Shown here one piece after another: positions 935 to 38,771 of a stretch of 62,124 nucleotides of DNA. A program made the position numbers and the translations under genes. The stretch is from the IMG/VR virus record IMGVR_UViG_2710723518_000006, positions 1 to 62,124 of that record. One strand, 5' to 3'. The first letter of the stretch is position 1; each line of letters opens with the position of its first letter. The DNA is from a virus. Under the pieces are notes generated by a model. It was not told the origin of the DNA. It did not search any database and was given only the letters and a program-made list of their open reading frames with translations.

Positions 935-1623
935 AGCGAGACATGGGCAGCGACGTGACGAACAGCGGGCCGGTCGACGGCCAGGATGATTGCCTGGAAT
1001 CGCAACTGGAGACGGCATTGCAGGCGGGTGACGCGGCGGACGCGCAACCCACGGCGGAACCGGTCGAATCCGAACCGGCCAAGGAACCGGCGACGCCCGT
1101 GCAGCCCGAGGCGAAGGTGCCGCTCACGGACGGCGAACTCTTGGCGGAGATCGAGGCCGCGGCGAAGGTGGCACGTGAACGGGAGCGGGAATTGCAGGCT
1201 GCGGAATCGGGGCTGAAGGTCGCCAAGGAACATGTCAAGGCGTGCGAGGGGAACCTGCACGCGGCGTTACGCAAGGTGTGCCAACTTTCGCTCCACGAGG
1301 ACATGCCGCTCTTCTCACAGCACGCGAACGGAACCGGCGAGTGCGCGGCTTCCGCCACCCTGGACGGAGAGACGGTGCCTATGCAGTCGGCCAACGACTC
1401 CTGGCGGTCCGTGCGGCTCGACTCGCTGGACGATCCCGATTTTACGCCGAGCCTGCTGAAGAAGCTGGCGGCAGCGGAGATTGAGACGATCGGGCAACTG
1501 GTCGACTATCAGGCGACGGGCAAATGGATCACTTCGATTCACGGCATCGGCCAGGCGGCGGGAGACAAATTGGCCGATGCGATGGAGCGGTTTTGGGCGG
1601 CGCACCCAGAGTACGCTCGCTGA
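931..1623 (+). CDS. Hypothetical protein with acidic/coiled N-terminal region and C-terminal helix-hairpin-helix
   Basis: The ATG at 931 overlaps the upstream stop (ATGA). The C-terminal motif is IETIGQLVDY...ITSIHGIGQAAGDKLADAM. Confidence 0.6.
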   Translation: MKRDMGSDVTNSGPVDGQDDCLESQLETALQAGDAADAQPTAEPVESEPAKEPATPVQPEAKVPLTDGELLAEIEAAAKVARERERELQAAESGLKVAKEHVKACEGNLHAALRKVCQLSLHEDMPLFSQHANGTGECAASATLDGETVPMQSANDSWRSVRLDSLDDPDFTPSLLKKLAAAEIETIGQLVDYQATGKWITSIHGIGQAAGDKLADAMERFWAAHPEYAR

Positions 1624-1640
1624 GGGACAAGGAGGTTGGA

Positions 1641-2999
1641 ATGGATTACGCATCATTTATTGCAGGCAAATGCCAGTCGCGTTCACATGGATTCGACCCG
1701 ATTTGGATTCCCGATTTTCTTTTCGATTTCCAGGTGTCGCTCGTCGAATGGGCTATCGGCAAAGGCCGAGCGGCTATTTTTGCCGAGTGCGGTCTCGGAA
1801 AAACTCCGATGCAGCTCGTCTGGGCTGAGAATGTAATTCGCCACACAAACAAACCTGTACTCCTGGTGACGCCGATCGCGGTCGGATCACAGGCAGAACG
1901 CGAAGCCGTCAAGTTCGGCATCGAGGCAAAACGAACCCGTGATGGCAAGATGGCCGGCGATAAGTGTATATGGATCACGAACTACGAACAATTGCATAAG
2001 TACGATCCGGCGATGTTTGGCGGATGCGTGTGCGACGAATCGTCAGCGATCAAAGACTTTAAGACGGATCGAAAAAAGGTAGTGGTCGAGTTTATGCGGA
2101 CAATACCGTATCGCCTGTTATGCACAGCGACGGCCGCACCGAATGACTACTGGGAACTCGGCACTTCCAGCGAAGCGTTGGGGTATCTCGGCTATCGTGA
2201 TATGCTAACGCACTTTTTCAAAGAGGAAGTAAAAAAGGATTATCTAGGGTGGGGTCGAACGAAATACCGTTTTCGTGGACACGCGGAGCAACCATTCTGG
2301 CAGTGGGTCTGTTCATGGGCACGTTCACTACGCAATCCGTCCGACCTTGGATTCGACGATAGCCGGTTCGCTCTTCCTGATTTGATTGAACATGAAATTG
2401 TCGTCAAACTCGATTCTCCGCGCAATGGCCTGCTGTTCGATATGCCGGCTAGCGACATGCGGGAAGAGCGTGCCGAACGGCGGCGAACGATCAAGGAACG
2501 CTGTGAACGAGCGGCGGCCATCGCCAATGAATGCACGGATGCGTCGGTTGTTTGGTGCGACCTGAACCCAGAAGGGGACTTGCTGGAGTCGCTGCTCGAC
2601 GATTGCGTTCAGGTCAAGGGTAGCATGTCTGACCAGGCGAAAGAAGAGGCGTTGCAGGCGTTCTCTTTTGGCCAGATCAGGCAGATGGTAATCAAACCGA
2701 AAATTGGAGCATGGGGACTAAACTGGCAGCACTGTGCTAATGTCGTTGAGTTCCCCACGCATTCGTTCGAACAACACTATCAGCTAGTTCGCAGATGTCA
2801 TAGGTTCGGCCAGACACGGCCGGTCCATGTATCGTCAGTGATTTGCGACAGCGAACAGGGAATCGTGGCTAACCGACGACGCAAAGCTAATCAGGTCGAC
2901 ACGATGTTTACCAGTATCGTTCGCCATATGGGCGATGAGTTGCATCTTGTTTCGCATGATAATTTCCCCGTAAAAGAGGATTGCCCGGCATGGCTGTGA
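1641..2999 (+). CDS. SNF2/DEAD-like superfamily 2 helicase
   Basis: SD AAGGAGG precedes the ATG at 1641. Motifs seen: AECGLGKTP (motif I), VCDESSAIKD (DExx) and RCHRFGQTRPV (motif VI). Confidence 0.85.
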   Translation: MDYASFIAGKCQSRSHGFDPIWIPDFLFDFQVSLVEWAIGKGRAAIFAECGLGKTPMQLVWAENVIRHTNKPVLLVTPIAVGSQAEREAVKFGIEAKRTRDGKMAGDKCIWITNYEQLHKYDPAMFGGCVCDESSAIKDFKTDRKKVVVEFMRTIPYRLLCTATAAPNDYWELGTSSEALGYLGYRDMLTHFFKEEVKKDYLGWGRTKYRFRGHAEQPFWQWVCSWARSLRNPSDLGFDDSRFALPDLIEHEIVVKLDSPRNGLLFDMPASDMREERAERRRTIKERCERAAAIANECTDASVVWCDLNPEGDLLESLLDDCVQVKGSMSDQAKEEALQAFSFGQIRQMVIKPKIGAWGLNWQHCANVVEFPTHSFEQHYQLVRRCHRFGQTRPVHVSSVICDSEQGIVANRRRKANQVDTMFTSIVRHMGDELHLVSHDNFPVKEDCPAWL

Positions 3000-3967
3000 T
3001 CGACCAGGAAGTCACGGACAGATATGCGATTTACAACGGTGATTCTGCGGAAGTGCTGCAATCTATTCCGGATGAATCCGTAGGGTTGAGTATCTACTCC
3101 CCTCCGTTCGCGACGGAGAATGGAGGGGCACTGTACAATTACAGTTCGTCGCTCCGTGACTTGTCGAACTCGCGAACGTACAAGGAGTTTTTCGATCATT
3201 ACCGCTTTATTGTCGAGCACATTGCCCGCGTCACGAAACCCGGTCGCATCTCGGCAGTGCATTGCATGGACGTTCCGAAACAGGGAGCGAACATCTGCGG
3301 ATACTCCGACTTTCCCGGCCACATTATCGCTCTTCATGAATCGCTAGGCTTCGACTACTTACCGCGTATCTGCATATGGAAAGAACCGCTTGCCGTTCGA
3401 AATCGGACGATGGCAAAAGCTCTTGCCCATCGCCAGATCGTAGAGGATTCTACGAAGACGAACGTCGCGGCCGCCGACTACCTTATTCCGTTTCGCAAGC
3501 GAGGGGACAATCCGGAGCCGGTAGTGCATCCGACCGGACTATCTGAGTATGCCGGAGAGCGTACCGTTCCGGCCGAACTCCATCGCTATCGCAACTGGAA
3601 AGGAAACCAGATAGAGAACCGGTATTCACATTGGATTTGGCGGAACTATGCTTCGTGCTTTTGGGACGATATTCGTTTGGGTCGCGTGCTCCCCTACGAA
3701 GAGAGTAAGGACGAAGGTGACGAGCGGCATATGCACCCGTTGCAGTTGGATGTAGTGGAACGAGCAGTCATATTATGGAGCAATCCCGGCGACGTGGTAT
3801 TGACCCCATTTATGGGTGTTGGCAGCGAAGTGTACGGGGCGGTGACGGCCAGAAGAAAAGGCATCGGTATCGAACTAAAGCCATCGTTCTATCGTCAGGC
3901 AGTAAAGAATCTTCACAAAGCCGTTGAAGAGTCGTCGACCCACAAGGAGCAATTATTGTTTTCATAA
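2990..3967 (+). CDS. DNA methyltransferase, N4-cytosine/N6-adenine family (beta-class order: SPPF then FxGxG)
   Basis: SIYSPPF catalytic motif, followed late by HPLQLDVVERAVILWSNPGDVVLTPFMGVGSE. It overlaps the helicase stop by 10 nt. Confidence 0.85.
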   Translation: MAVIDQEVTDRYAIYNGDSAEVLQSIPDESVGLSIYSPPFATENGGALYNYSSSLRDLSNSRTYKEFFDHYRFIVEHIARVTKPGRISAVHCMDVPKQGANICGYSDFPGHIIALHESLGFDYLPRICIWKEPLAVRNRTMAKALAHRQIVEDSTKTNVAAADYLIPFRKRGDNPEPVVHPTGLSEYAGERTVPAELHRYRNWKGNQIENRYSHWIWRNYASCFWDDIRLGRVLPYEESKDEGDERHMHPLQLDVVERAVILWSNPGDVVLTPFMGVGSEVYGAVTARRKGIGIELKPSFYRQAVKNLHKAVEESSTHKEQLLFS

Positions 3968-6139: not shown

Positions 6140-6625
6140 TCAGGCCAAAAACTTGTATTGCTTTCCGTCAAAGATAATTCGGCCTTCTTCCATAAGTTTG
6201 TAGCAGATTTTTTCGAGTTGAAAATGGATGCTTTTGTGTTCAACACGAGTACAAATCAAGAGATTTTCTATTCGGTTATCATCTTTGATTCCATTGATAT
6301 GGTTAACTACCTCGTTAGGCTTCAATCGCCTTTTTGCGTTTCTCTCGGCAACCAAGACATGCTCAGGAACATATTTGTTGTAGCCTCGACCTGGAGCGTA
6401 GACCATGACGTATCCCCATCGGTCAATAAATCGCCCGCCGTTCCAAGATGGATGGTCCTTACCTCTGAGTATCGGCCGGCAAGGCAATGGTCCGCACCCT
6501 GCCTTGCGGCGGTGGTATTGGAGCGTCTGATAGTACGCTCCAACAGATTTGGCGATCGCTCTAAGGCTTTCGCCGTCAGCCAGTCTCTGCTCGATTTCAT
6601 CTACAGTAATCGTAGTTTTTGTCAT
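6140..6625 (-). CDS. HNH homing endonuclease with N-terminal HTH; AT-rich mobile cassette
   Basis: VVNHINGIKDDNRIENLLICTRVEHKSIH. GC content is clearly lower than in the flanks, and the gene runs opposite to the surrounding operon. Confidence 0.85.
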   Translation of the reverse strand: MTKTTITVDEIEQRLADGESLRAIAKSVGAYYQTLQYHRRKAGCGPLPCRPILRGKDHPSWNGGRFIDRWGYVMVYAPGRGYNKYVPEHVLVAERNAKRRLKPNEVVNHINGIKDDNRIENLLICTRVEHKSIHFQLEKICYKLMEEGRIIFDGKQYKFLA

Positions 6626-6651
6626 ACAGGTATTATACAAATAAATCTGCC

Positions 6652-7500
6652 ATGCAACAACTAACTGTACTTAGTCTGTTTAGCGGAATTGGTGGACTCG
6701 ATCTGGGGTTAGAGAGGGCGGGTATGCGGATCGTTGCCCAAGTCGAGATTGACGACTTCTGTCGTCGCGTGCTGGCCAAACACTGGCCGGACGTGCCGCG
6801 GTGGGACGACGTGACGACGTTGGATTGTGACGAGGTGTTGCTGAAGTGCGGGCCGATCGACGCTGTTGTCGGCGGAGTACCGTGCCAGCCGGCGAGCGTG
6901 GCAGGGAGGCGCAAAGGTGGGACTGACAGCCGCTGGCTCTGGCCAGCTGTTTTGCGAGTTGTGCGGGAGATCAACCCCGTGTGGGTGCTGGCAGAGAACG
7001 TGCCTGGACTCGTTAGTCTGCCAGGTGGAGCGTTTGACGGGATTCTCTCCGCCATCGAGACAATGGGTTACGAAGTCCAGACGTACTGTTTTGGTGCTGG
7101 ACATGCCGGCTCGCCCCACCAGCGGAGGCGAATATGGTTGGTTGCCCACACTGACCGTGTGTCAACGGGGGAATCGGAGCAGTTACCACAATGCGAAGTA
7201 TCGTCCGTCGTTGCAGCAGATCGCTCGTCGTGGCTGGCTCCCGATGCTGCAAGCACAAGACGCAACGGGCGGACCGAACAAGATAACAGCGGACAGGAAA
7301 CGCAACACACGCGGATTCTCACTGATGATGAAGGACATAGCTGGGGGCTGTCTATGCCCCCGCTTCTGCGAGGCGTACATGGGGCTCCCCGATTGTTGGA
7401 CCGAACTGCGAGAGTCAAAGCCCTAGGCAACAGCGTAGTGCCAGCCTGTGCCGAGATGATCGGCCGGGCGATATTGGAGGGGGAACGCAATGAGCGATGA
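6652..7500 (+). CDS. dcm: DNA (cytosine-5) methyltransferase
   Basis: Motifs LFSGIGGLDLGLERAG (I), GGVPCQPAS (IV), AENVPGL (VI), QRRRIWLVA (VIII) and KALGNSVVP (X). The first ~70 nt are AT-richer than the rest. Confidence 0.85.
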   Translation: MQQLTVLSLFSGIGGLDLGLERAGMRIVAQVEIDDFCRRVLAKHWPDVPRWDDVTTLDCDEVLLKCGPIDAVVGGVPCQPASVAGRRKGGTDSRWLWPAVLRVVREINPVWVLAENVPGLVSLPGGAFDGILSAIETMGYEVQTYCFGAGHAGSPHQRRRIWLVAHTDRVSTGESEQLPQCEVSSVVAADRSSWLAPDAASTRRNGRTEQDNSGQETQHTRILTDDEGHSWGLSMPPLLRGVHGAPRLLDRTARVKALGNSVVPACAEMIGRAILEGERNER

Positions 7501-33937: not shown

Positions 33938-34950
33938 TGAGGTCATCCATGCCAACGGTCAAAACTCGTTATCGCGTCAAGGTCATGACTCCTGTCAAGG
34001 CGTCCCGCATGTCGCTGTCGCCCGATCGCTGCATCCGCCTGTTCCTGCGTCACGCCCCTGACGCGGAGCAGCGGATGATTCACGGCCAATTGCACGATCC
34101 CAAAGGTTTGGCTCGCGAGATCCTCCAATTCGCGTTCCGGTTCGTCGGTCCGCGATCCGGCAAACCACGTACCGTCGCGTCGCGGTCGCAGGTGCCGAAA
34201 GGCATCTTGGCGTCTGGCAAGTTCGAAGAGATCAAGGTCGAGCGGAAGAAGCGGGAAGCGAAACCGAAGAAGGAACCGACAAAGAAGCTGGCAAAATCCC
34301 CCGCTGCGGACGCCGCGAAAGAACCGTCGCACGCGGAGGCCCACGCGAACGAACAGGCGAAAGCCCTCGGACACCTAAAGCGGCTCGGGGTAGACGTGAC
34401 GCACAATCCGAACGCGAATCCAGGCGAGTTGGAGTACCAGATTTCCAAATTCTCGAGGCAATTGACGGAGCCGCAGTTGACCCGCGTCAATTCCATCGTG
34501 GCGTCGCAGGCCCTTAACAAGCGAATCCCGCCACGCGGTGAACGCAAGGCCCCGGCCACGATCGCCGCTGCCGACCAAAAGAAAGTCGACGCATTGATTG
34601 AACGTATCCACAAGAGCTTGCCAGCCAACCAAGCCGAGTTGCTGGAAAAGTATGCCCCGCTCTTGGCACCGAAACGGACCTACGCCAAGCACACGTCGCT
34701 ACCTACCATGCCGAAAGCGGATGAGACGCTGATCCAAAAAGAGATGGCGTTTATCCCACGCGACCACGATTTCAACCTGGCAATGGAACGTCTCGGCTCT
34801 CGGCACGAACTGCCAAGCGATCGCCGCAAGGCTCGGCTGTTCCGCGCGGAAGCCATCAAGCGGGTCCGGAACCGGTTCGATTCCTCGAAGGACCGCGGGG
34901 AATGGACACGGTGGAACGATCTGTATTCGCAGATCACTCAAGGTGTCTAA
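33937..34950 (+). CDS. Lys-rich hypothetical protein sharing a 37-aa motif with the scaffold/protease
   Basis: TAATG overlap. FAFRFVGPRSGKPRTVASRSQVPKGILASGKFEEIK compares with LAFRFVGPRSGKSRVVGSKSQIPKGVLASGKFEEIK in 30810-32432. Confidence 0.5.
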   Translation: MRSSMPTVKTRYRVKVMTPVKASRMSLSPDRCIRLFLRHAPDAEQRMIHGQLHDPKGLAREILQFAFRFVGPRSGKPRTVASRSQVPKGILASGKFEEIKVERKKREAKPKKEPTKKLAKSPAADAAKEPSHAEAHANEQAKALGHLKRLGVDVTHNPNANPGELEYQISKFSRQLTEPQLTRVNSIVASQALNKRIPPRGERKAPATIAAADQKKVDALIERIHKSLPANQAELLEKYAPLLAPKRTYAKHTSLPTMPKADETLIQKEMAFIPRDHDFNLAMERLGSRHELPSDRRKARLFRAEAIKRVRNRFDSSKDRGEWTRWNDLYSQITQGV

Positions 34951-35336
34951 AGTTTCCTCTCTTTGAATTTATCGCTTCTGCCGCACGATAGACATACCGG
35001 CCAATGCGACAGATGGATCTTCATGCACCTTGTGCAATACGTTACTTTTGTCGCTAGCGTCCATTCGCGATTCGTGACCGGTTCGGTATTGTCTGGTGTG
35101 AGTGAGTAGTCAAATTGATCGTCAGCTCTCTTGATCGCTTCGCGATACTCCACTTCGATGCGATCCACTTCCGCCGCAAGCATTTGGTCATCCGGCCGAC
35201 AATACTGAAACCCAGACAGCCCGATCGCTTCGAGCGCTTTCGCTCGTTTGATTTCCGCATTGCCAATGAGCCGGTGCCAGTCCGTGACTTCGGATTTTCT
35301 GATCTGTTCGAATGCCCGTATCGTAGCTTCCTTCAT
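34947..35336 (-). CDS. Hypothetical protein with C-terminal zinc ribbon
   Basis: CTRC...CLSC. Its stop codon overlaps the stop of the convergent gene at 33937-34950. Confidence 0.5.
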   Translation of the reverse strand: MKEATIRAFEQIRKSEVTDWHRLIGNAEIKRAKALEAIGLSGFQYCRPDDQMLAAEVDRIEVEYREAIKRADDQFDYSLTPDNTEPVTNREWTLATKVTYCTRCMKIHLSHWPVCLSCGRSDKFKERKL

Positions 35337-35348
35337 TGATTTCCTTCG

Positions 35349-37727
35349 TTACTTCACCACGTAAGGCATGAATGAACTCGTGCCGACGTTCGACGCGAGA
35401 CGGCAAGCGTAGGAAATTGCGTCGCAATTATGAACGAGTATGCCTGAAGAGAAGTATTCGTGATTGCCTTCAATCGTTAGATTGTAAACGACATGCCGCC
35501 CTGGCAAGATTGCTGGCAATTCTACCGCATGCACGCGAACAATTCTTTTGCTTTGCATACCGGCTGACAGAAAACACTTTTCCGCATGTTGCGCATATTC
35601 TGTTTTCGTTGTCGATCTTTGATTTACGACGTGACCTGAGACTGCATTTTCCTGAGCAAAACTTGCTCTTGCCAACATATTCATGACAGTAGTCTTTTCC
35701 GCATTCTGAGCATATGGCGCAACGACGTATTGCTTTTCCAAATCCGTGTTGTTTTGCATGACGCCGATGCCATTCTTTTCCCTCTGCTGATTGATGCCAT
35801 GCGACAGTAAGGTGACGTATCTTAGCAAGATGCTGCAAAGCTTTTGTTGTGGCGTAGTCTCCTCGCTCGCCATGAACCTTATGATGTTTTTCCGACGATA
35901 CACATTCAAGATTTGATATATCGTTGTTAAGGAAGTCTCCATCTTTATGATGGATATGGCATCCGTCAGGAATAGGGCCGTAATGAGATTTCCAGATTTC
36001 CTGATGAAGGTGCTGAATGCCTCTTTTAACGTGCCCGCCATGCGGCCGATAATATCTTCGATATGCCTCTTGTTTTGCTTCGGGATATCTCCGGAAGACA
36101 ATGCCGTTAAAAACGATTGATTCTGATTTAGCTCCTGATTTCCACATGGCACCATTGTATCTTCGTAAGAGATAGCGTCGAGTGGTATCCATCCACGATC
36201 AAGAGAAAATACGGGATGGTTTCTGGTCCCAACAAGTTCCATGCCGTTTGATAGTCGCACGCGACACACGGTTGCAGAATGGCTAGTTATTCCAGATGCG
36301 ACTACCTTTCTTGTTCCTGATCTTGTCGTAACAAAATCCCCTACGCGAATCGTGTCGATGCGACGTGGACCGCTCGGCGTACTGATTAGTGTATCCGCTA
36401 CAAAACATTGGTCATCGTGTGATCCGTCCGGAAACGCCAACAACTCCCTCTCAAATTCTGGCACCCACGCGGCATCTTTTGGTAGCCATACCTTCCCCTG
36501 CTCAAACTTTACCGACGCCGCCTGTGCCCGCACGATCTTGTCGCCCTTCGGATGGATCGGCCGGACCTGAACGCCCTGCCGATTAAGCAACTGAATCATG
36601 GCCCGCTGGTACGCCACGTCCTCGACCCCGACCCATTGCAGCCCGTACTCATTGACCAACGCCTTGATTCTCTCCAGCGTCTCCGGTGCCCCGATGCGGC
36701 CGCGGTAGCAGTGCCGGATGATGAGCGTCCCGGTACTGTCGTGCTCGCAGCACAGGATAACCGTGTAATCCGCCGACGTCGATTCGCTCACAGCCAGATC
36801 GACTACGCCGAACGGCAGGAACGAGCGTTGCGGGACGATGTTCGGACCAAGGATGTATTGCTGTTCCTGTGCCCGCCATGATTGGAACCATTCGCGCTTG
36901 AAAATGTTGCCGTCCGCCACCACGTCCCAATCGCCGTCGAGCAATTGCGCCCGCGTGATGTGGTCGAGGTGGCCCAGAGCCTGGACGTATTCCTCTTGGT
37001 CAAGGAACGGATTGTCACGCAGGCCGGCGGGAACGAATGTTCTCTTTAGACCAGGGTCAACGATGAATCGCTGTTTCACCCAGTCGTTGCCAATACCTCC
37101 AGGATTGCTTGCTGACAACATCCTGATAGGTATGCGACTCCCTTCAAGGCGACGGAGCCGACTGAACAAATATAGGTAATCCTCTTCTTTGAACTGCGTT
37201 AGCTCATCAAACACAACGGTCTGACATTCCATGCCTTGATAGCGGTAACGGTCGTTTCGCTGGTCGAGGTATCCGAACGTGATCGTTGCTCCGCTTGGGA
37301 ACCGCCAACGCTTGTCTGTCCCATTCCATGTCGCTCCGGACCCTTGCAGCCAATCGTGCGAGCGATCCATCAATGCCCCTGGCAATGCCAAGTCTGCATA
37401 AGTACGACGGAAGAGAATTGCGGAGTAATTAGGATGATGAACGTACTGCAAAACAGACATTAAAAGAACATCACTTTTCCCGGAACCTGCTGAACCTCCG
37501 TACAGTATTTCAGTGCTGTCCGTTCTTAGGAATGCCGTTTGCTTTGCCGTTGGTCGGTGTGGGCAGAATGGGATGATCGGCCGCGTGTCCATTGCTCGGA
37601 GCAACGTCGATAGTCTGTCCGTGTTGCCCGTCTTCAAGCAGGAGTCGATCGAGTTCCTCAAGAGCGATCGCTGCTTGCTCGGCAACGCCTTCAACGCTTC
37701 CCGGAGTTCCCGCCTCAACGTGGACAT
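35349..37727 (-). CDS. terL: Terminase large subunit, interrupted by an intein; start uncertain (ATG 37727 or 37592, GTG 37763)
   Basis: Walker A GGSAGSGKSD. The nuclease motif DGSHDDQ|...|CDAISYA is split by the intein. Third-position G/C is high in this frame upstream of 37600. Confidence 0.85.
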   Translation of the reverse strand: MSTLRRELREALKALPSKQRSLLRNSIDSCLKTGNTDRLSTLLRAMDTRPIIPFCPHRPTAKQTAFLRTDSTEILYGGSAGSGKSDVLLMSVLQYVHHPNYSAILFRRTYADLALPGALMDRSHDWLQGSGATWNGTDKRWRFPSGATITFGYLDQRNDRYRYQGMECQTVVFDELTQFKEEDYLYLFSRLRRLEGSRIPIRMLSASNPGGIGNDWVKQRFIVDPGLKRTFVPAGLRDNPFLDQEEYVQALGHLDHITRAQLLDGDWDVVADGNIFKREWFQSWRAQEQQYILGPNIVPQRSFLPFGVVDLAVSESTSADYTVILCCEHDSTGTLIIRHCYRGRIGAPETLERIKALVNEYGLQWVGVEDVAYQRAMIQLLNRQGVQVRPIHPKGDKIVRAQAASVKFEQGKVWLPKDAAWVPEFERELLAFPDGSHDDQCFVADTLISTPSGPRRIDTIRVGDFVTTRSGTRKVVASGITSHSATVCRVRLSNGMELVGTRNHPVFSLDRGWIPLDAISYEDTMVPCGNQELNQNQSFLTALSSGDIPKQNKRHIEDIIGRMAGTLKEAFSTFIRKSGNLITALFLTDAISIIKMETSLTTIYQILNVYRRKNIIRFMASEETTPQQKLCSILLRYVTLLSHGINQQREKNGIGVMQNNTDLEKQYVVAPYAQNAEKTTVMNMLARASFAQENAVSGHVVNQRSTTKTEYAQHAEKCFLSAGMQSKRIVRVHAVELPAILPGRHVVYNLTIEGNHEYFSSGILVHNCDAISYACRLASNVGTSSFMPYVVK
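35427..36407 (-). mobile_element. Hint-type intein (327 codons) in TerL
   Basis: It starts CFVADTLISTP, has GTRNHPVF (block B), and ends VYNLTIEGNHEYFSSGILVHN followed by the extein Cys. It is AT-rich. Confidence 0.85.
35470..36192 (-). CDS. HNH endonuclease ORF nested in the intein but in a different reading frame from TerL
   Basis: 240-aa ORF with its own ATG and TGA. HIHHKDGDFLNNDISNLECVSSEKHHKVH plus CxxC...CxxC. Its frame offset to TerL is 2 nt. Confidence 0.75.
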   Translation of the reverse strand: MDTTRRYLLRRYNGAMWKSGAKSESIVFNGIVFRRYPEAKQEAYRRYYRPHGGHVKRGIQHLHQEIWKSHYGPIPDGCHIHHKDGDFLNNDISNLECVSSEKHHKVHGERGDYATTKALQHLAKIRHLTVAWHQSAEGKEWHRRHAKQHGFGKAIRRCAICSECGKDYCHEYVGKSKFCSGKCSLRSRRKSKIDNENRICATCGKVFSVSRYAKQKNCSRACGRIASNLARAACRLQSND

Positions 37728-38136
37728 GGCTGTGGACGTGCTGGTGGAGTTCTGGTTGTTCACCTTTACCCGCCTTTTCCTTGTCGAGTTCCAGCCGCTC
37801 GCGGTCCATTTCGAGTTTTGCGATCGCGGCCGGAACCCGCATGGCCGCCCCGTAGTCGCGTGCCGATCCGTCCTGGACCGCCTGGGCGCCGAGCCGGAAC
37901 GCACCGGCCAGAACTTTCGCCGCCTGTTCCTCCGTCACGACGCCGCAAGAGAGAATCCGGGCCGCCAGCCGGGCGTCCTGTTTGGTTCTGTGCGGGTCGA
38001 ATAGCTCGCCCGTCCCGCCCATGCCGTCTGGCATCGGCGGCGGTTTCGGCAATGCCGCCAGTTCGGCCGCGTGCGGCGCGTTCACCTTCTGGTGCGCGGC
38101 TTTCTTGTTGCGGCGTTTTTGGCGTTTAGATGCCAT
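37510..38136 (-). CDS. Putative small terminase/packaging accessory protein (position-based only); its 3' part overlaps TerL
   Basis: MASKRQKRRNKKAAH... lies directly upstream of TerL. No family recognised. Confidence 0.4.
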   Translation of the reverse strand: MASKRQKRRNKKAAHQKVNAPHAAELAALPKPPPMPDGMGGTGELFDPHRTKQDARLAARILSCGVVTEEQAAKVLAGAFRLGAQAVQDGSARDYGAAMRVPAAIAKLEMDRERLELDKEKAGKGEQPELHQHVHSHVHVEAGTPGSVEGVAEQAAIALEELDRLLLEDGQHGQTIDVAPSNGHAADHPILPTPTNGKANGIPKNGQH

Positions 38137-38240: not shown

Positions 38241-38771
38241 TCATAAAACATGCGACCATCCTCCATTGGTATCAGCATTGACGACGCGACCAACAGTTGA
38301 TTTCCCGACTCCAACTGCTGCGGCAATATCTTCATACTTCTGTCCTTCAGCCCGTCGCTTCCTGATCTCCCGTACCTTTTCGTCCGTGAGCCTAGAAAGA
38401 TGATGAGACTCTCCGACAGGTGGCCGTTTTCTGACTCTAGCGATTCTTGCCGCAGCTTCGGTACGATGATTTTGTGACCATGAACGAACCTTGGCGCTCA
38501 TATCCTTCATGTTGTTAGTCTGTGTACCGATGAATAAGCATGACGGATTGACACATGCAGGGTTGTCGCATTTGTGGAGAACGTACAGATTATCGGGTAT
38601 TGATCCTACAAACAATTCCCATGACACCCGATGAGCGCTTCGGTAACGCCCGCCGCTAAGATAAACCATACCGTAACCGCTTTTGGATTTTTTCCCCCGC
38701 CAGATCCAACAGCTATCCGTTTTAAGAATCTTGTCGAGAAATCTTTCCGCAAACGGCTTGAATCTTGGCAT
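38241..38771 (-). CDS. HNH homing endonuclease (HNH_3 type) with C-terminal HTH; AT-rich cassette
   Basis: SAHRVSWELFVGSIPDNLYVLHKCDNPACVNPSCLFIGTQTNN. SD AAGGAGG lies upstream. Confidence 0.85.
   Translation of the reverse strand: MPRFKPFAERFLDKILKTDSCWIWRGKKSKSGYGMVYLSGGRYRSAHRVSWELFVGSIPDNLYVLHKCDNPACVNPSCLFIGTQTNNMKDMSAKVRSWSQNHRTEAAARIARVRKRPPVGESHHLSRLTDEKVREIRKRRAEGQKYEDIAAAVGVGKSTVGRVVNADTNGGWSHVL

Follow-up and report, generated by a model that had tools for sequence, protein, structure and literature searches.

The large terminase (TerL) gene of the IMG/VR virus record IMGVR_UViG_2710723518_000006, analyzed here over positions 1 to 62,124 (this stretch of 62,124 nucleotides [nt] is referred to below as the window), contains an intein of exactly 327 codons, and an open reading frame (ORF) encoding an HNH endonuclease lies on the same strand inside that intein in a different reading frame. 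A first-pass annotation made from the sequence had drawn attention to this out-of-frame gene; the observation is real and was confirmed, and the reading given to it, that of an intein hosting a free-standing homing endonuclease gene, is supported. The locus very probably represents a composite selfish element in which a class-1 Hint intein occupies the last catalytic motif of TerL and a separately translated HNH homing endonuclease gene runs across the intein linker in the −1 frame. The same arrangement recurs at the same TerL site in most of the related loci that we examined, and across these loci the HNH frame is conserved as a protein and the TerL frame is kept free of stop codons.

Anatomy of the terL locus

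All features of this locus are on the minus strand. The terL ORF (35349..37904) comprises 851 codons as an open frame, with a likely start at the ATG at 37727 (MSTLRRE), and matches the Pfam families Terminase_6N (E-value 9e-14) and Terminase_6C (E-value 2e-8) as well as TIGR01630. The N-extein (36408..37727) spans the ATPase domain, whose Walker A motif (GGSAGSGKS) occupies 37499..37473, together with the greater part of the RNase-H-like nuclease domain, and it ends in ...PDGSHDDQ. The C-extein (35349..35426) consists of 25 codons from the +1 cysteine (CDAISYACRL...) to the stop codon at 35349-35351 and carries the last nuclease motif, C-x-D-A-x-x-Y. The corresponding intein-less junction would be of the type ...GATGGTTCACACGATGACCAA/TGCGACGCAATTTCC..., where the slash, here and below, marks a splice junction or its empty counterpart.

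The intein (35427..36407) is read in the TerL frame. Its N-terminal nucleophile, Cys1 (codon 36407..36405), directly follows the N-extein (...DGSHDDQ/CFVADTL...) and is conserved in relatives. The N-terminal splicing lobe (36150..36407), which ends in GWIPLDAISYED at an approximate boundary with the linker, includes block B as GTRNHPVF (T-x-x-H; 36230..36207), and the Pfam Hint_2 profile covers intein residues 1-37; lobes homologous to this one are present in 76 loci. The C-terminal splicing lobe (35427..35546) comprises blocks F and G (RIVRVHAV...VVYNLTIEGNHEYFSSGILVHN) and ends in a His-Asn pair that is followed by the +1 Cys (...SGILVHN/CDAISYA). The terminal Asn is invariant in every relative with a resolved C-terminal junction, and the +1 residue is C, S, or T. 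In the TerL frame, the Pfam scores were 37.8 bits for Intein_splicing (cut-off, 35.8) and 36 bits for Hint_2 (cut-off, 28.4), and TIGR01443 (intein_Cterm) was passed with 21.5 bits (cut-off, 15.6). With C1, the T-x-x-H of block B, the terminal HN, and C+1 all present, the window intein fits the class-1 Hint type. The linker between the lobes (35547..36149), about 200 codons in the TerL frame, is nothing more than the HNH gene read in its +1 frame, and a Pfam scan of the linker in that frame found no domain. The first-pass annotation had described a 327-codon Hint-type intein at the TerL nuclease motif with about 200 featureless codons between its lobes; its coordinates proved exact, the Pfam thresholds were passed, and the linker is no more conserved than a noncoding frame (see below).

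The HNH ORF (35470..36192) has 240 codons, an ATG start, and a TGA stop codon and is read in the −1 frame relative to terL. An in-frame stop lies two codons upstream of its first ATG, and the TGA closes the frame inside the C-lobe. When profiles were run on the frames, the HNH frame matched HNH_3 (59.4 bits against a cut-off of 24.8; E-value 2.6e-16), and Intein_splicing and Hint_2 were found in the TerL frame, as anticipated in the first-pass annotation; the HNH ORF also matches phrog_15471 (E-value 1e-34). The catalytic motif (HIHHKDGDFLNNDISNLECVSSEKHHKVH) lies at 35872..35958, and the C-terminal CxxC pairs that had been pointed out belong to two zinc-ribbon-like modules at 35527..35721 (CAICSEC...FCSGKC and CATCGK...CSRAC), among whose structure matches was a YacG-like zinc-ribbon fold. 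The HNH tail (CSRACGRIASNLARAACRLQSND, followed by the stop) lies over intein block F in the other frame, and this dual-coding segment (35470..35546) extends over about 25 codons. The window intein is an out-of-frame intein in the sense that a same-strand nuclease ORF lies between its lobes and the extein frame is uninterrupted. The GC content is 56.1% in the N-extein versus 45.4% in the intein (a gap of 10.7 points), and no 723-nt stretch of the window is more AT-rich than the HNH interval (44.1% GC); both frames are stop-free across this interval, as the earlier annotation had claimed. The source gene calls apparently hold both overlapping genes, with HNH as a 239-amino-acid (aa) protein and TerL as a 627-aa protein from an internal start (P0001 and P0092).

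An AlphaFold2 model of the HNH protein, computed with an alignment of homologs, had a mean predicted local distance difference test score (pLDDT) of 86, with residues 1-15 below 50; two strands (residues 78-82 and 95-99) lead into a helix (residues 100-109). Among proteins of solved structure, I-HmuI (1U3E) is the nearest relative of the catalytic core, and it was reached by profile alone (E-value 8.6e-4); a phmmer search of the HNH protein against PDB sequences gave no match. The top Foldseek match of the model in the PDB was likewise I-HmuI, as a weak match (probability, 0.82; E-value, 0.11; TM-score, 0.23-0.29). The predicted HNH product is an I-HmuI-like catalytic core plus two zinc ribbons.

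Conservation of the arrangement and selection on the two frames

Approximately 90 database proteins of 200-230 aa are relatives of the HNH protein, all of them called as separate proteins. With the HNH alignment as the query, IMG/VR yielded 80 loci, and the IMG/VR loci number at least 297. We examined 85 loci, window included, and used 74 distinct nested HNH genes for selection statistics. In 76 of the 85 loci, the HNH open frame is wholly inside a long ORF in the +1 frame, and each of these ORFs is a TerL with an intein of about 300-345 codons (226-299 in the few that were resolved as shorter). The insertion site is the same in relatives (...[DN]H/C...HN/C[ILV]DA[LI]RY); in the nested loci, the first HNH-matching residue lies at about residue 65-100 of the intein, and 12-30 intein codons follow the end of the HNH ORF. 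An HNH gene in frame with its intein was seen in none of the 85 loci. The nested loci include a separate NCBI metagenome contig (L004), in which HNH lies in the second frame of the TerL intein as in the window, and a locus (L002) whose HNH gene was called as free-standing between terL and the portal gene and was shown by frame analysis to be nested. Cultured phages are also represented: the same arrangement was checked in detail in Tetrasphaera phage TJE1, and Clostridium phage phiCDHM19, Acinetobacter phage Highwayman, and Vibrio phages 1.238.A and 1.245.O are further cases. The finished cultured-phage genomes annotate the intein-bearing TerL simply as terminase.

Stop-free overlap on this scale is not expected from composition. 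In the window, the third same-strand frame contains 14 stops across the HNH interval versus 14.1 predicted from base composition, which gives a probability of 5e-7 for 240 codons without a stop. When the HNH gene was shuffled among synonymous codons, the TerL frame acquired a mean of 3.7 stops, and only 0.5% of shuffles were stop-free. The number of TerL-frame stops is zero in 74 of 74 distinct nested HNH genes, versus a mean of 5.9 in eight distinct non-nested relatives (free-standing or split). NTA and NTG codons occur in the nested genes at half their non-nested frequency, and the next base never completes a stop.

The HNH frame carries the signature of a protein-coding gene. Divergence at HNH codon positions 1, 2, and 3 was 0.46, 0.43, and 0.66 across the nested genes, and the non-nested relatives showed the same pattern (0.45, 0.42, and 0.63). 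Mean amino acid identity across the nested genes was 43% in the HNH frame, 22% in the TerL (+1) frame, and 22% in the noncoding +2 frame. The HNH frame alone is clearly under protein-level purifying selection across the family; the TerL-frame linker is conserved no more than noncoding sequence and is constrained only to be stop-free. The earlier proposal that both frames are under selection thus stands, at the protein level for HNH and as stop avoidance only for TerL. Residues H81, H82, N90, N94, and H103 are invariant in 74/74 nested homologs, as are C161, C164, C179, and C183, and a second cysteine set is present in about 60 of the 74; every family-invariant catalytic and zinc-binding residue is present in the window HNH. 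True double constraint is confined to the last ~25 HNH codons (35470-35546), where the last zinc ribbon and the tail lie over block F. Read in the other frame, the segment encoding 'VYNLT(I/V)EG' gives the recurrent HNH C-terminus '..LQS(N/D)(D/G)'.

The first-pass annotation had also looked to homologs with stops in either frame as evidence against it. None was found in the TerL frame, and the only premature stop in the HNH frame was in L016 (IMGVR_UViG_3300045988_062966, positions 3001-3645), where an in-frame stop interrupts the conserved RYP motif of the nested HNH (MSKTETIIYDGKRWNR, stop, PESK...) and the TerL frame is open. Either nuclease decay, which the homing cycle predicts, or a sequencing error may explain the stop in L016.

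The nine non-nested loci fall into two groups, two that are free-standing (L001 and L003) and seven that are apparently split. The free-standing HNH gene of L001 is separated by 78 nt from the stop codon of terL and is followed by the portal gene. Its product is the closest relative of the window HNH (49% identity), and the adjacent terL (1182-3923, plus strand) is interrupted in its ATPase region by a LAGLIDADG-type intein, whereas its nuclease-motif site is intein-free. In L003, HNH starts 2 nt after the stop of an intein-less terL, approximately 15 codons from the empty insertion site. Phage PAE1 has a free-standing relative directly behind an intein-less terL, again about 15 codons from the site and ahead of the portal gene, and phage BP10 has one upstream of terS. 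In the apparently split loci L060, L062, L077, and L076/L078/L083, an ORF for the N-terminal part of TerL and the intein N-lobe stops at the HNH start, and a short ORF that begins inside the HNH 3' end (MKVKSITYAGKADVYNMEVE...AHN/C...) encodes the C-lobe together with the C-extein. L055, which is split or disrupted, probably belongs to this group. These loci appear to be split-intein ("fractured terL") derivatives of the same family.

The intein family itself is apparently very large, with nested-ORF status known from the 85 loci only. An exhaustive HMMER search with the TerL-frame intein of the window, run against protein clusters defined at 50% identity, matched 3,341 cluster representatives at an E-value of ≤1e-3 and 1,003 at ≤1e-10, and most of the best 150 matches span all 327 residues near the C-terminus of proteins of 700-1200 aa. 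A word-indexed protein search with the same sequence gave no match, which we attribute to a limitation of the prefilter because the exhaustive search found so many representatives. Most other database copies of HNH are on contigs of 1-2 kb in which terL is cut off, which suggests that gene callers usually suppress the nested ORF; standard callers would do so because they rarely call same-strand nested ORFs.

Mobility, expression, and alternative explanations

Several observations suggest that the intein and its HNH gene have spread as a unit among TerLs of different Pfam families. The host proteins include Terminase_6 (the window and L009) and Terminase_3 (L016, L022, and L041) members and several without a Pfam terminase match, and where extein identity is at noise level (<25%), the N-lobes retain about 38% identity and the HNH proteins about 43%. 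In 53 of 55 loci, the GC content of the intein is below that of its extein, by a mean of 5.8 points. The nearest relatives of the window TerL that cover the site have no intein there (L085, L103, and L106-L109), and the best TerL matches reach 65% identity in a Verrucomicrobiota metagenome-assembled genome (MAG; L085) and 58% in IMG/VR, compared with at most 49% for HNH. The clearest case is a precise presence/absence pair of cultured C. difficile phages. The terL of Clostridium phage phiCDHM19 (L145, NC_028996) reads ...KNKHDDA/intein/CDATTGVAEK..., and that of Clostridioides phage CD1801 (L146, MW512570) reads ...KNKHDDA-PDALTGVAEK... with no insert; up to precisely this point the two genes share 94% identity, and several substitutions follow immediately downstream. 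Such a pair is as expected of homing, and precise loss could also account for it. The Acinetobacter phages BP10 and Highwayman were considered as a second pair and rejected, as their TerLs are only 32% identical. The HNH/intein family has a star-like structure, with identities of 40-50%. Comparison of the N-lobe, HNH, and extein showed that their identities were weakly correlated (Spearman coefficients of 0.23, 0.10, and 0.18) and were uninformative on cotransfer, and their comparison revealed no recent transfers in the sampled loci.

With regard to expression, the true HNH start is probably the second ATG, at 36147 (MWKSGAKSESIVFNGI..., MWKSGAK...), which is favored because the starts of homologs and the confidence of the AlphaFold2 model both indicate it. 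Homologs start 6-18 codons before an FNG motif, and in 68 of the 74 nested genes an ATG, usually the sole one, lies at this distance upstream of the conserved xVxFNG start. A Shine-Dalgarno-like motif precedes 33 of the 74, and a stop normally closes the HNH frame a few codons above the start. A sigma-70-like site (TCGACG-16 nt-TACAAT; 36154..36181, minus strand) has a −10 hexamer that ends 6 nt before the ATG at 36147. The site has 9/12 matches, and the scan found 4 such sites versus 2.1±1.6 expected, which is not above chance. The geometry GA-TATAAT-N6-ATG is found in about 12 related loci (e.g., L006, L007, L011, L018, L021, L028, and L072), and the bases of the −10-like hexamer also encode the conserved end of the N-lobe (Y-x-D-I-I). 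A leaderless HNH mRNA could be produced from this site, which we note as a weak lead.

We propose the following mechanism. Ribosomes on terL would read through the intein, the frame of which is open, and the linker would have no role other than to remain stop-free and to tether the two lobes. The lobes would then fold and splice to yield ...DGSHDDQ-CDAISYA... and an active terminase; splicing is expected because TerL is essential and the insertion lies inside a catalytic motif. Translation of the HNH protein would begin at an internal start of its own, probably at the ATG at 36147, as the conserved start codons of the family suggest. To judge from the presence/absence pair and the distribution of the family, the protein may cut or nick the intein-less terL of coinfecting phages near the site, and repair would then copy intein and HNH together. 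The element apparently also yields the split-intein derivatives described above.

A number of points weigh against this scheme. Neither ATG in the window is preceded by a clear Shine-Dalgarno motif. TIGR01445 (intein N-terminus) fell just short, at 22.5 bits against a cut-off of 24.5, and the block F Asp is replaced by Asn in the window (VYNL), a substitution that is nevertheless shared by about half of the family. A single-sequence AlphaFold2 prediction of the window intein was uninformative (pLDDT, 36). Some free-standing HNH relatives lie beside terS or terL, as packaging-associated HNH proteins do. No close relatives of the window phage were found, the best matches having at most 65% identity for TerL and 49% for HNH. 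Splicing, HNH translation, cleavage specificity, and homing of the element are all inferred from sequence.

Four other explanations were weighed. The first-pass annotation had itself named two compensating indels, concealing a canonical intein with its HNH domain in frame, as the finding that would overturn it. Artefacts of this kind are a priori the commonest cause of a wrong-frame domain, and the region is AT-rich and foreign in composition. However, the same frame relation was seen in 76 independent loci from different projects, the finished genomes of TJE1, phiCDHM19, and Highwayman among them, and no in-frame member exists among the 85 loci; the rarity of stop-free synonymous shuffles shows that the TerL frame is actively kept open, and the HNH frame is bounded by the stop before its ATG and by the TGA inside the C-lobe. 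Because 76 of the 85 loci share this frame relation and this TerL site, an assembly artefact is excluded, and a hidden in-frame intein has practically no probability left. It is also very improbable that HNH is expressed by programmed −1 frameshifting as a fusion of N-extein, N-lobe, and HNH. The −1 relation is the usual direction of phage frameshifts, and the missing Shine-Dalgarno motif in the window would fit such a route, but the junction in the window has no X XXY YYZ slippery heptamer, and a stop closes the frame two codons before the window ATG and within a few codons in most loci. The conserved ATG distances (68/74) and the Shine-Dalgarno-like motifs (33/74) argue against a fusion as well, and the same proteins occur as free-standing genes. 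With the frame closed upstream, the ATGs conserved, and a slippery site lacking, independent initiation is therefore favored over −1 frameshifting.

The remaining two explanations accept a separate HNH gene and question its role. The homing cycle predicts that an endonuclease decays after fixation, and the window ORF might be an inactive relic in an intein that is fixed, so that the TerL frame alone matters now; the premature stop in L016 and the absence of a Shine-Dalgarno motif in the window point in this direction. We consider this improbable, since the window ORF is intact, has kept all family-invariant catalytic and zinc-binding residues, and encodes a confidently predicted fold, and since purifying selection on the HNH frame is family-wide. 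The HNH protein might instead be a packaging accessory of the HK97 gp74 type that has become lodged in terL and is not, or not only, a homing endonuclease. Free-standing relatives adjoin terS or terL (upstream of terS in BP10, between terL and the portal gene in PAE1), the idea has been raised for the brucellaphage case (PMC4422536), and zinc-ribbon HNH enzymes adjoining terminase genes are known (PMC3592412). Against this, the catalytic core is of the HNH_3/I-HmuI-like, homing-endonuclease type, and the gene travels with the intein at a fixed site across unrelated TerL families. It is absent from CD1801, despite a 94% identical terL, and from the TerL relatives of the window, and it is therefore dispensable for packaging. 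A packaging role is thus unlikely too, and a homing endonuclease gene overprinted on a splicing intein remains our preferred reading.

A broader interpretation, which we advance tentatively and regard as somewhat short of probable, is that the out-of-frame state is ancient, selected, and very widespread rather than a brief transitional stage that precedes fusion of nuclease and intein. The nuclease would have been kept in the −1 frame throughout diversification, separate and perhaps leaderless initiation would uncouple its dosage and timing from those of the highly expressed terminase, and stops in the linker would repeatedly yield split inteins. If this is true, overprinted inteins would be direct precursors of fractured genes. 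Independently of this interpretation, the "featureless" middle of the intein is the shadow of a real gene. The family provides each of the three states that a "splicing first, nuclease invades later" model of intein evolution predicts (free-standing next to the empty site, overprinted in a contiguous intein, and apparently split), and the cultured pair phiCDHM19/CD1801 and the carrier TJE1 make the model and the expression of the nested nuclease directly testable. Where an annotated TerL of ~700-850 aa has some 200 aa of unexplained insert close to its C-terminus, the −1 frame is worth checking.

Other HNH genes were noted in the window and in a related contig. All three lowest-GC islands of the window hold HNH genes. 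A second, free-standing HNH_3-type ORF (38241-38771, minus strand; 176 aa; phrog_1872, E-value 1e-31) lies in a low-GC island (47% GC) two ORFs upstream of terL. A third HNH-type ORF (6140-6640, minus strand; 166 aa; ...VNHINGIKDDNRIENLLICTRVEHKSIH...), with an N-terminal helix-turn-helix-like region, lies in the island that ranks second in AT content (47% GC), next to an apparent DNA cytosine methyltransferase gene (6619-7500, plus strand). Directly downstream of terL is an ORF of 129 aa (34947-35336, minus strand; GC content, ~48-53%) with a C-terminal CxxC...CxxC arrangement (CTRCMKIHLSHWPVCLSCG) and no PHROG match. The terL of the Verrucomicrobiota MAG (JAUPWC010000542.1, 398-2671, plus strand; L085) contains a different intein, in the Walker-B region (...AELQY/CVAAGT...LIARN/CGFDEATQF), inside which an antisense ORF (993-1646, minus strand) encodes a 217-aa protein with HNH_3 (E-value 3e-11) and a helix-turn-helix. 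Within the literature covered (open-access papers and bioRxiv), we found no report of an antisense HNH gene in an intein.

Comparison with known systems

The first-pass annotation was not aware of a described case of an overprinted nuclease gene inside an intein, and in this it was mistaken: such a gene is known from Brucella phage Tb, and related architectures are described in preprints of 2025 and 2026. In the RefSeq record of phage Tb (NC_019446), gp07 is a TerL annotated as 'intein present' and the overlapping gp08 as a 'putative HNH endonuclease'; the gene is described in PMC4422536. The brucellaphages (Tb, Pr, and relatives) resemble the window in having a TerL intein, a nested same-strand gene of ~230 aa for an HNH protein with a zinc ribbon, and an open TerL frame. 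However, their intein lies in mid-TerL (approximately residues 181-506 of 848) rather than at the C-terminal nuclease motif, their HNH gene is +1 to terL and that of the window −1, and their protein has the Pfam HNH domain PF01844 with N-terminal zinc ribbons, whereas the window protein has HNH_3 with C-terminal ones. Only the beta-beta-alpha motif aligns between the two proteins (pairwise E-value, 0.002), and tblastn with the window protein did not retrieve the brucellaphage HNH.

Out-of-frame endonucleases of inteins were surveyed by Gosselin et al. (bioRxiv 10.1101/2025.01.02.630785), who call the architecture rare and propose that free-standing homing endonuclease genes invade inteins; the same 2025 preprint also reports intein nucleases of LAGLIDADG and VSR-like types that are encoded antisense. 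Their type D is like the window in that a same-strand nuclease ORF lies between the splicing blocks, in 'frame 3' relative to the intein, the hosts include TerL, and the extein-frame linker has no recognizable structure. The type D nuclease is endonuclease VII-like (IPR004211), with core residues 1-67, whereas that of the window is HNH_3/I-HmuI-like. Pfam returned HNH_3 only for the window HNH, with no match to Endonuclease_7 (PF02945) at an E-value of <0.1, and the window therefore represents a different nuclease family in the same architecture. In contrast to the rarity reported by Gosselin et al., the window family appears to be very large. A cyanobacterial dnaX intein with an out-of-frame LAGLIDADG nuclease was described, with a comparable selection analysis, by Phillips et al. 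(bioRxiv 10.64898/2026.09.14.751524). It shares with the window the separate overlapping frames, purifying selection on the nuclease frame, and a sporadic distribution, and its disordered extein-frame linker is the counterpart of the window linker; it differs in its cellular host gene, its LAGLIDADG nuclease, and its frame offset.

The apparently split loci recall the fractured genes of Dassa et al. (2009; PMC2677866), in which a free-standing homing endonuclease gene lies between the halves of a split intein. As in the window family, the nuclease gene sits between the N and C parts of the intein, and the nuclease 3' end overlaps the start of the C part. The nucleases of Dassa et al. are GIY-YIG and Vsr-like only, whereas the apparently split relatives found here (L055, L060, L062, L076-78/83, and L077) have HNH; the window itself differs from fractured genes in its contiguous intein within a single 851-codon ORF. 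The hidden out-of-frame HNH insertions of the ShiLan type in phage methylase genes (Arsenault et al.; PMC11855218) also place an alternative-frame HNH ORF in an insertion that is open in the frame of the host gene, but these insertions have no detectable splicing domains, whereas the Hint lobes of the window pass Pfam thresholds. I-HmuI of phage SPO1, an intron-encoded HNH nicking homing endonuclease, is encoded in its own frame and has NUMOD/helix-turn-helix DNA-binding modules, unlike the window HNH, which lies inside an intein and has zinc ribbons. Packaging HNH proteins of the HK97 gp74 type are small, PF01844-type proteins adjoining terS or cos, and the window HNH is of the Pfam type HNH_3.

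In the survey of Kelley et al. (2016), every TerL intein of the mycobacteriophages lay within the ATPase domain, and the nuclease-motif site of the window is a different one. We found no description of the HNH_3/zinc-ribbon family, its size, or its series of contiguous, split, and free-standing forms in open-access papers and bioRxiv. To specialists the architecture itself will be no surprise; the interest lies in the apparent abundance and long-term stability of the out-of-frame state, the cultured pair, and the split derivatives. An out-of-frame HNH gene in a TerL intein is already known from the brucellaphages, in literature from 2015, and the family found in the window is a different one.

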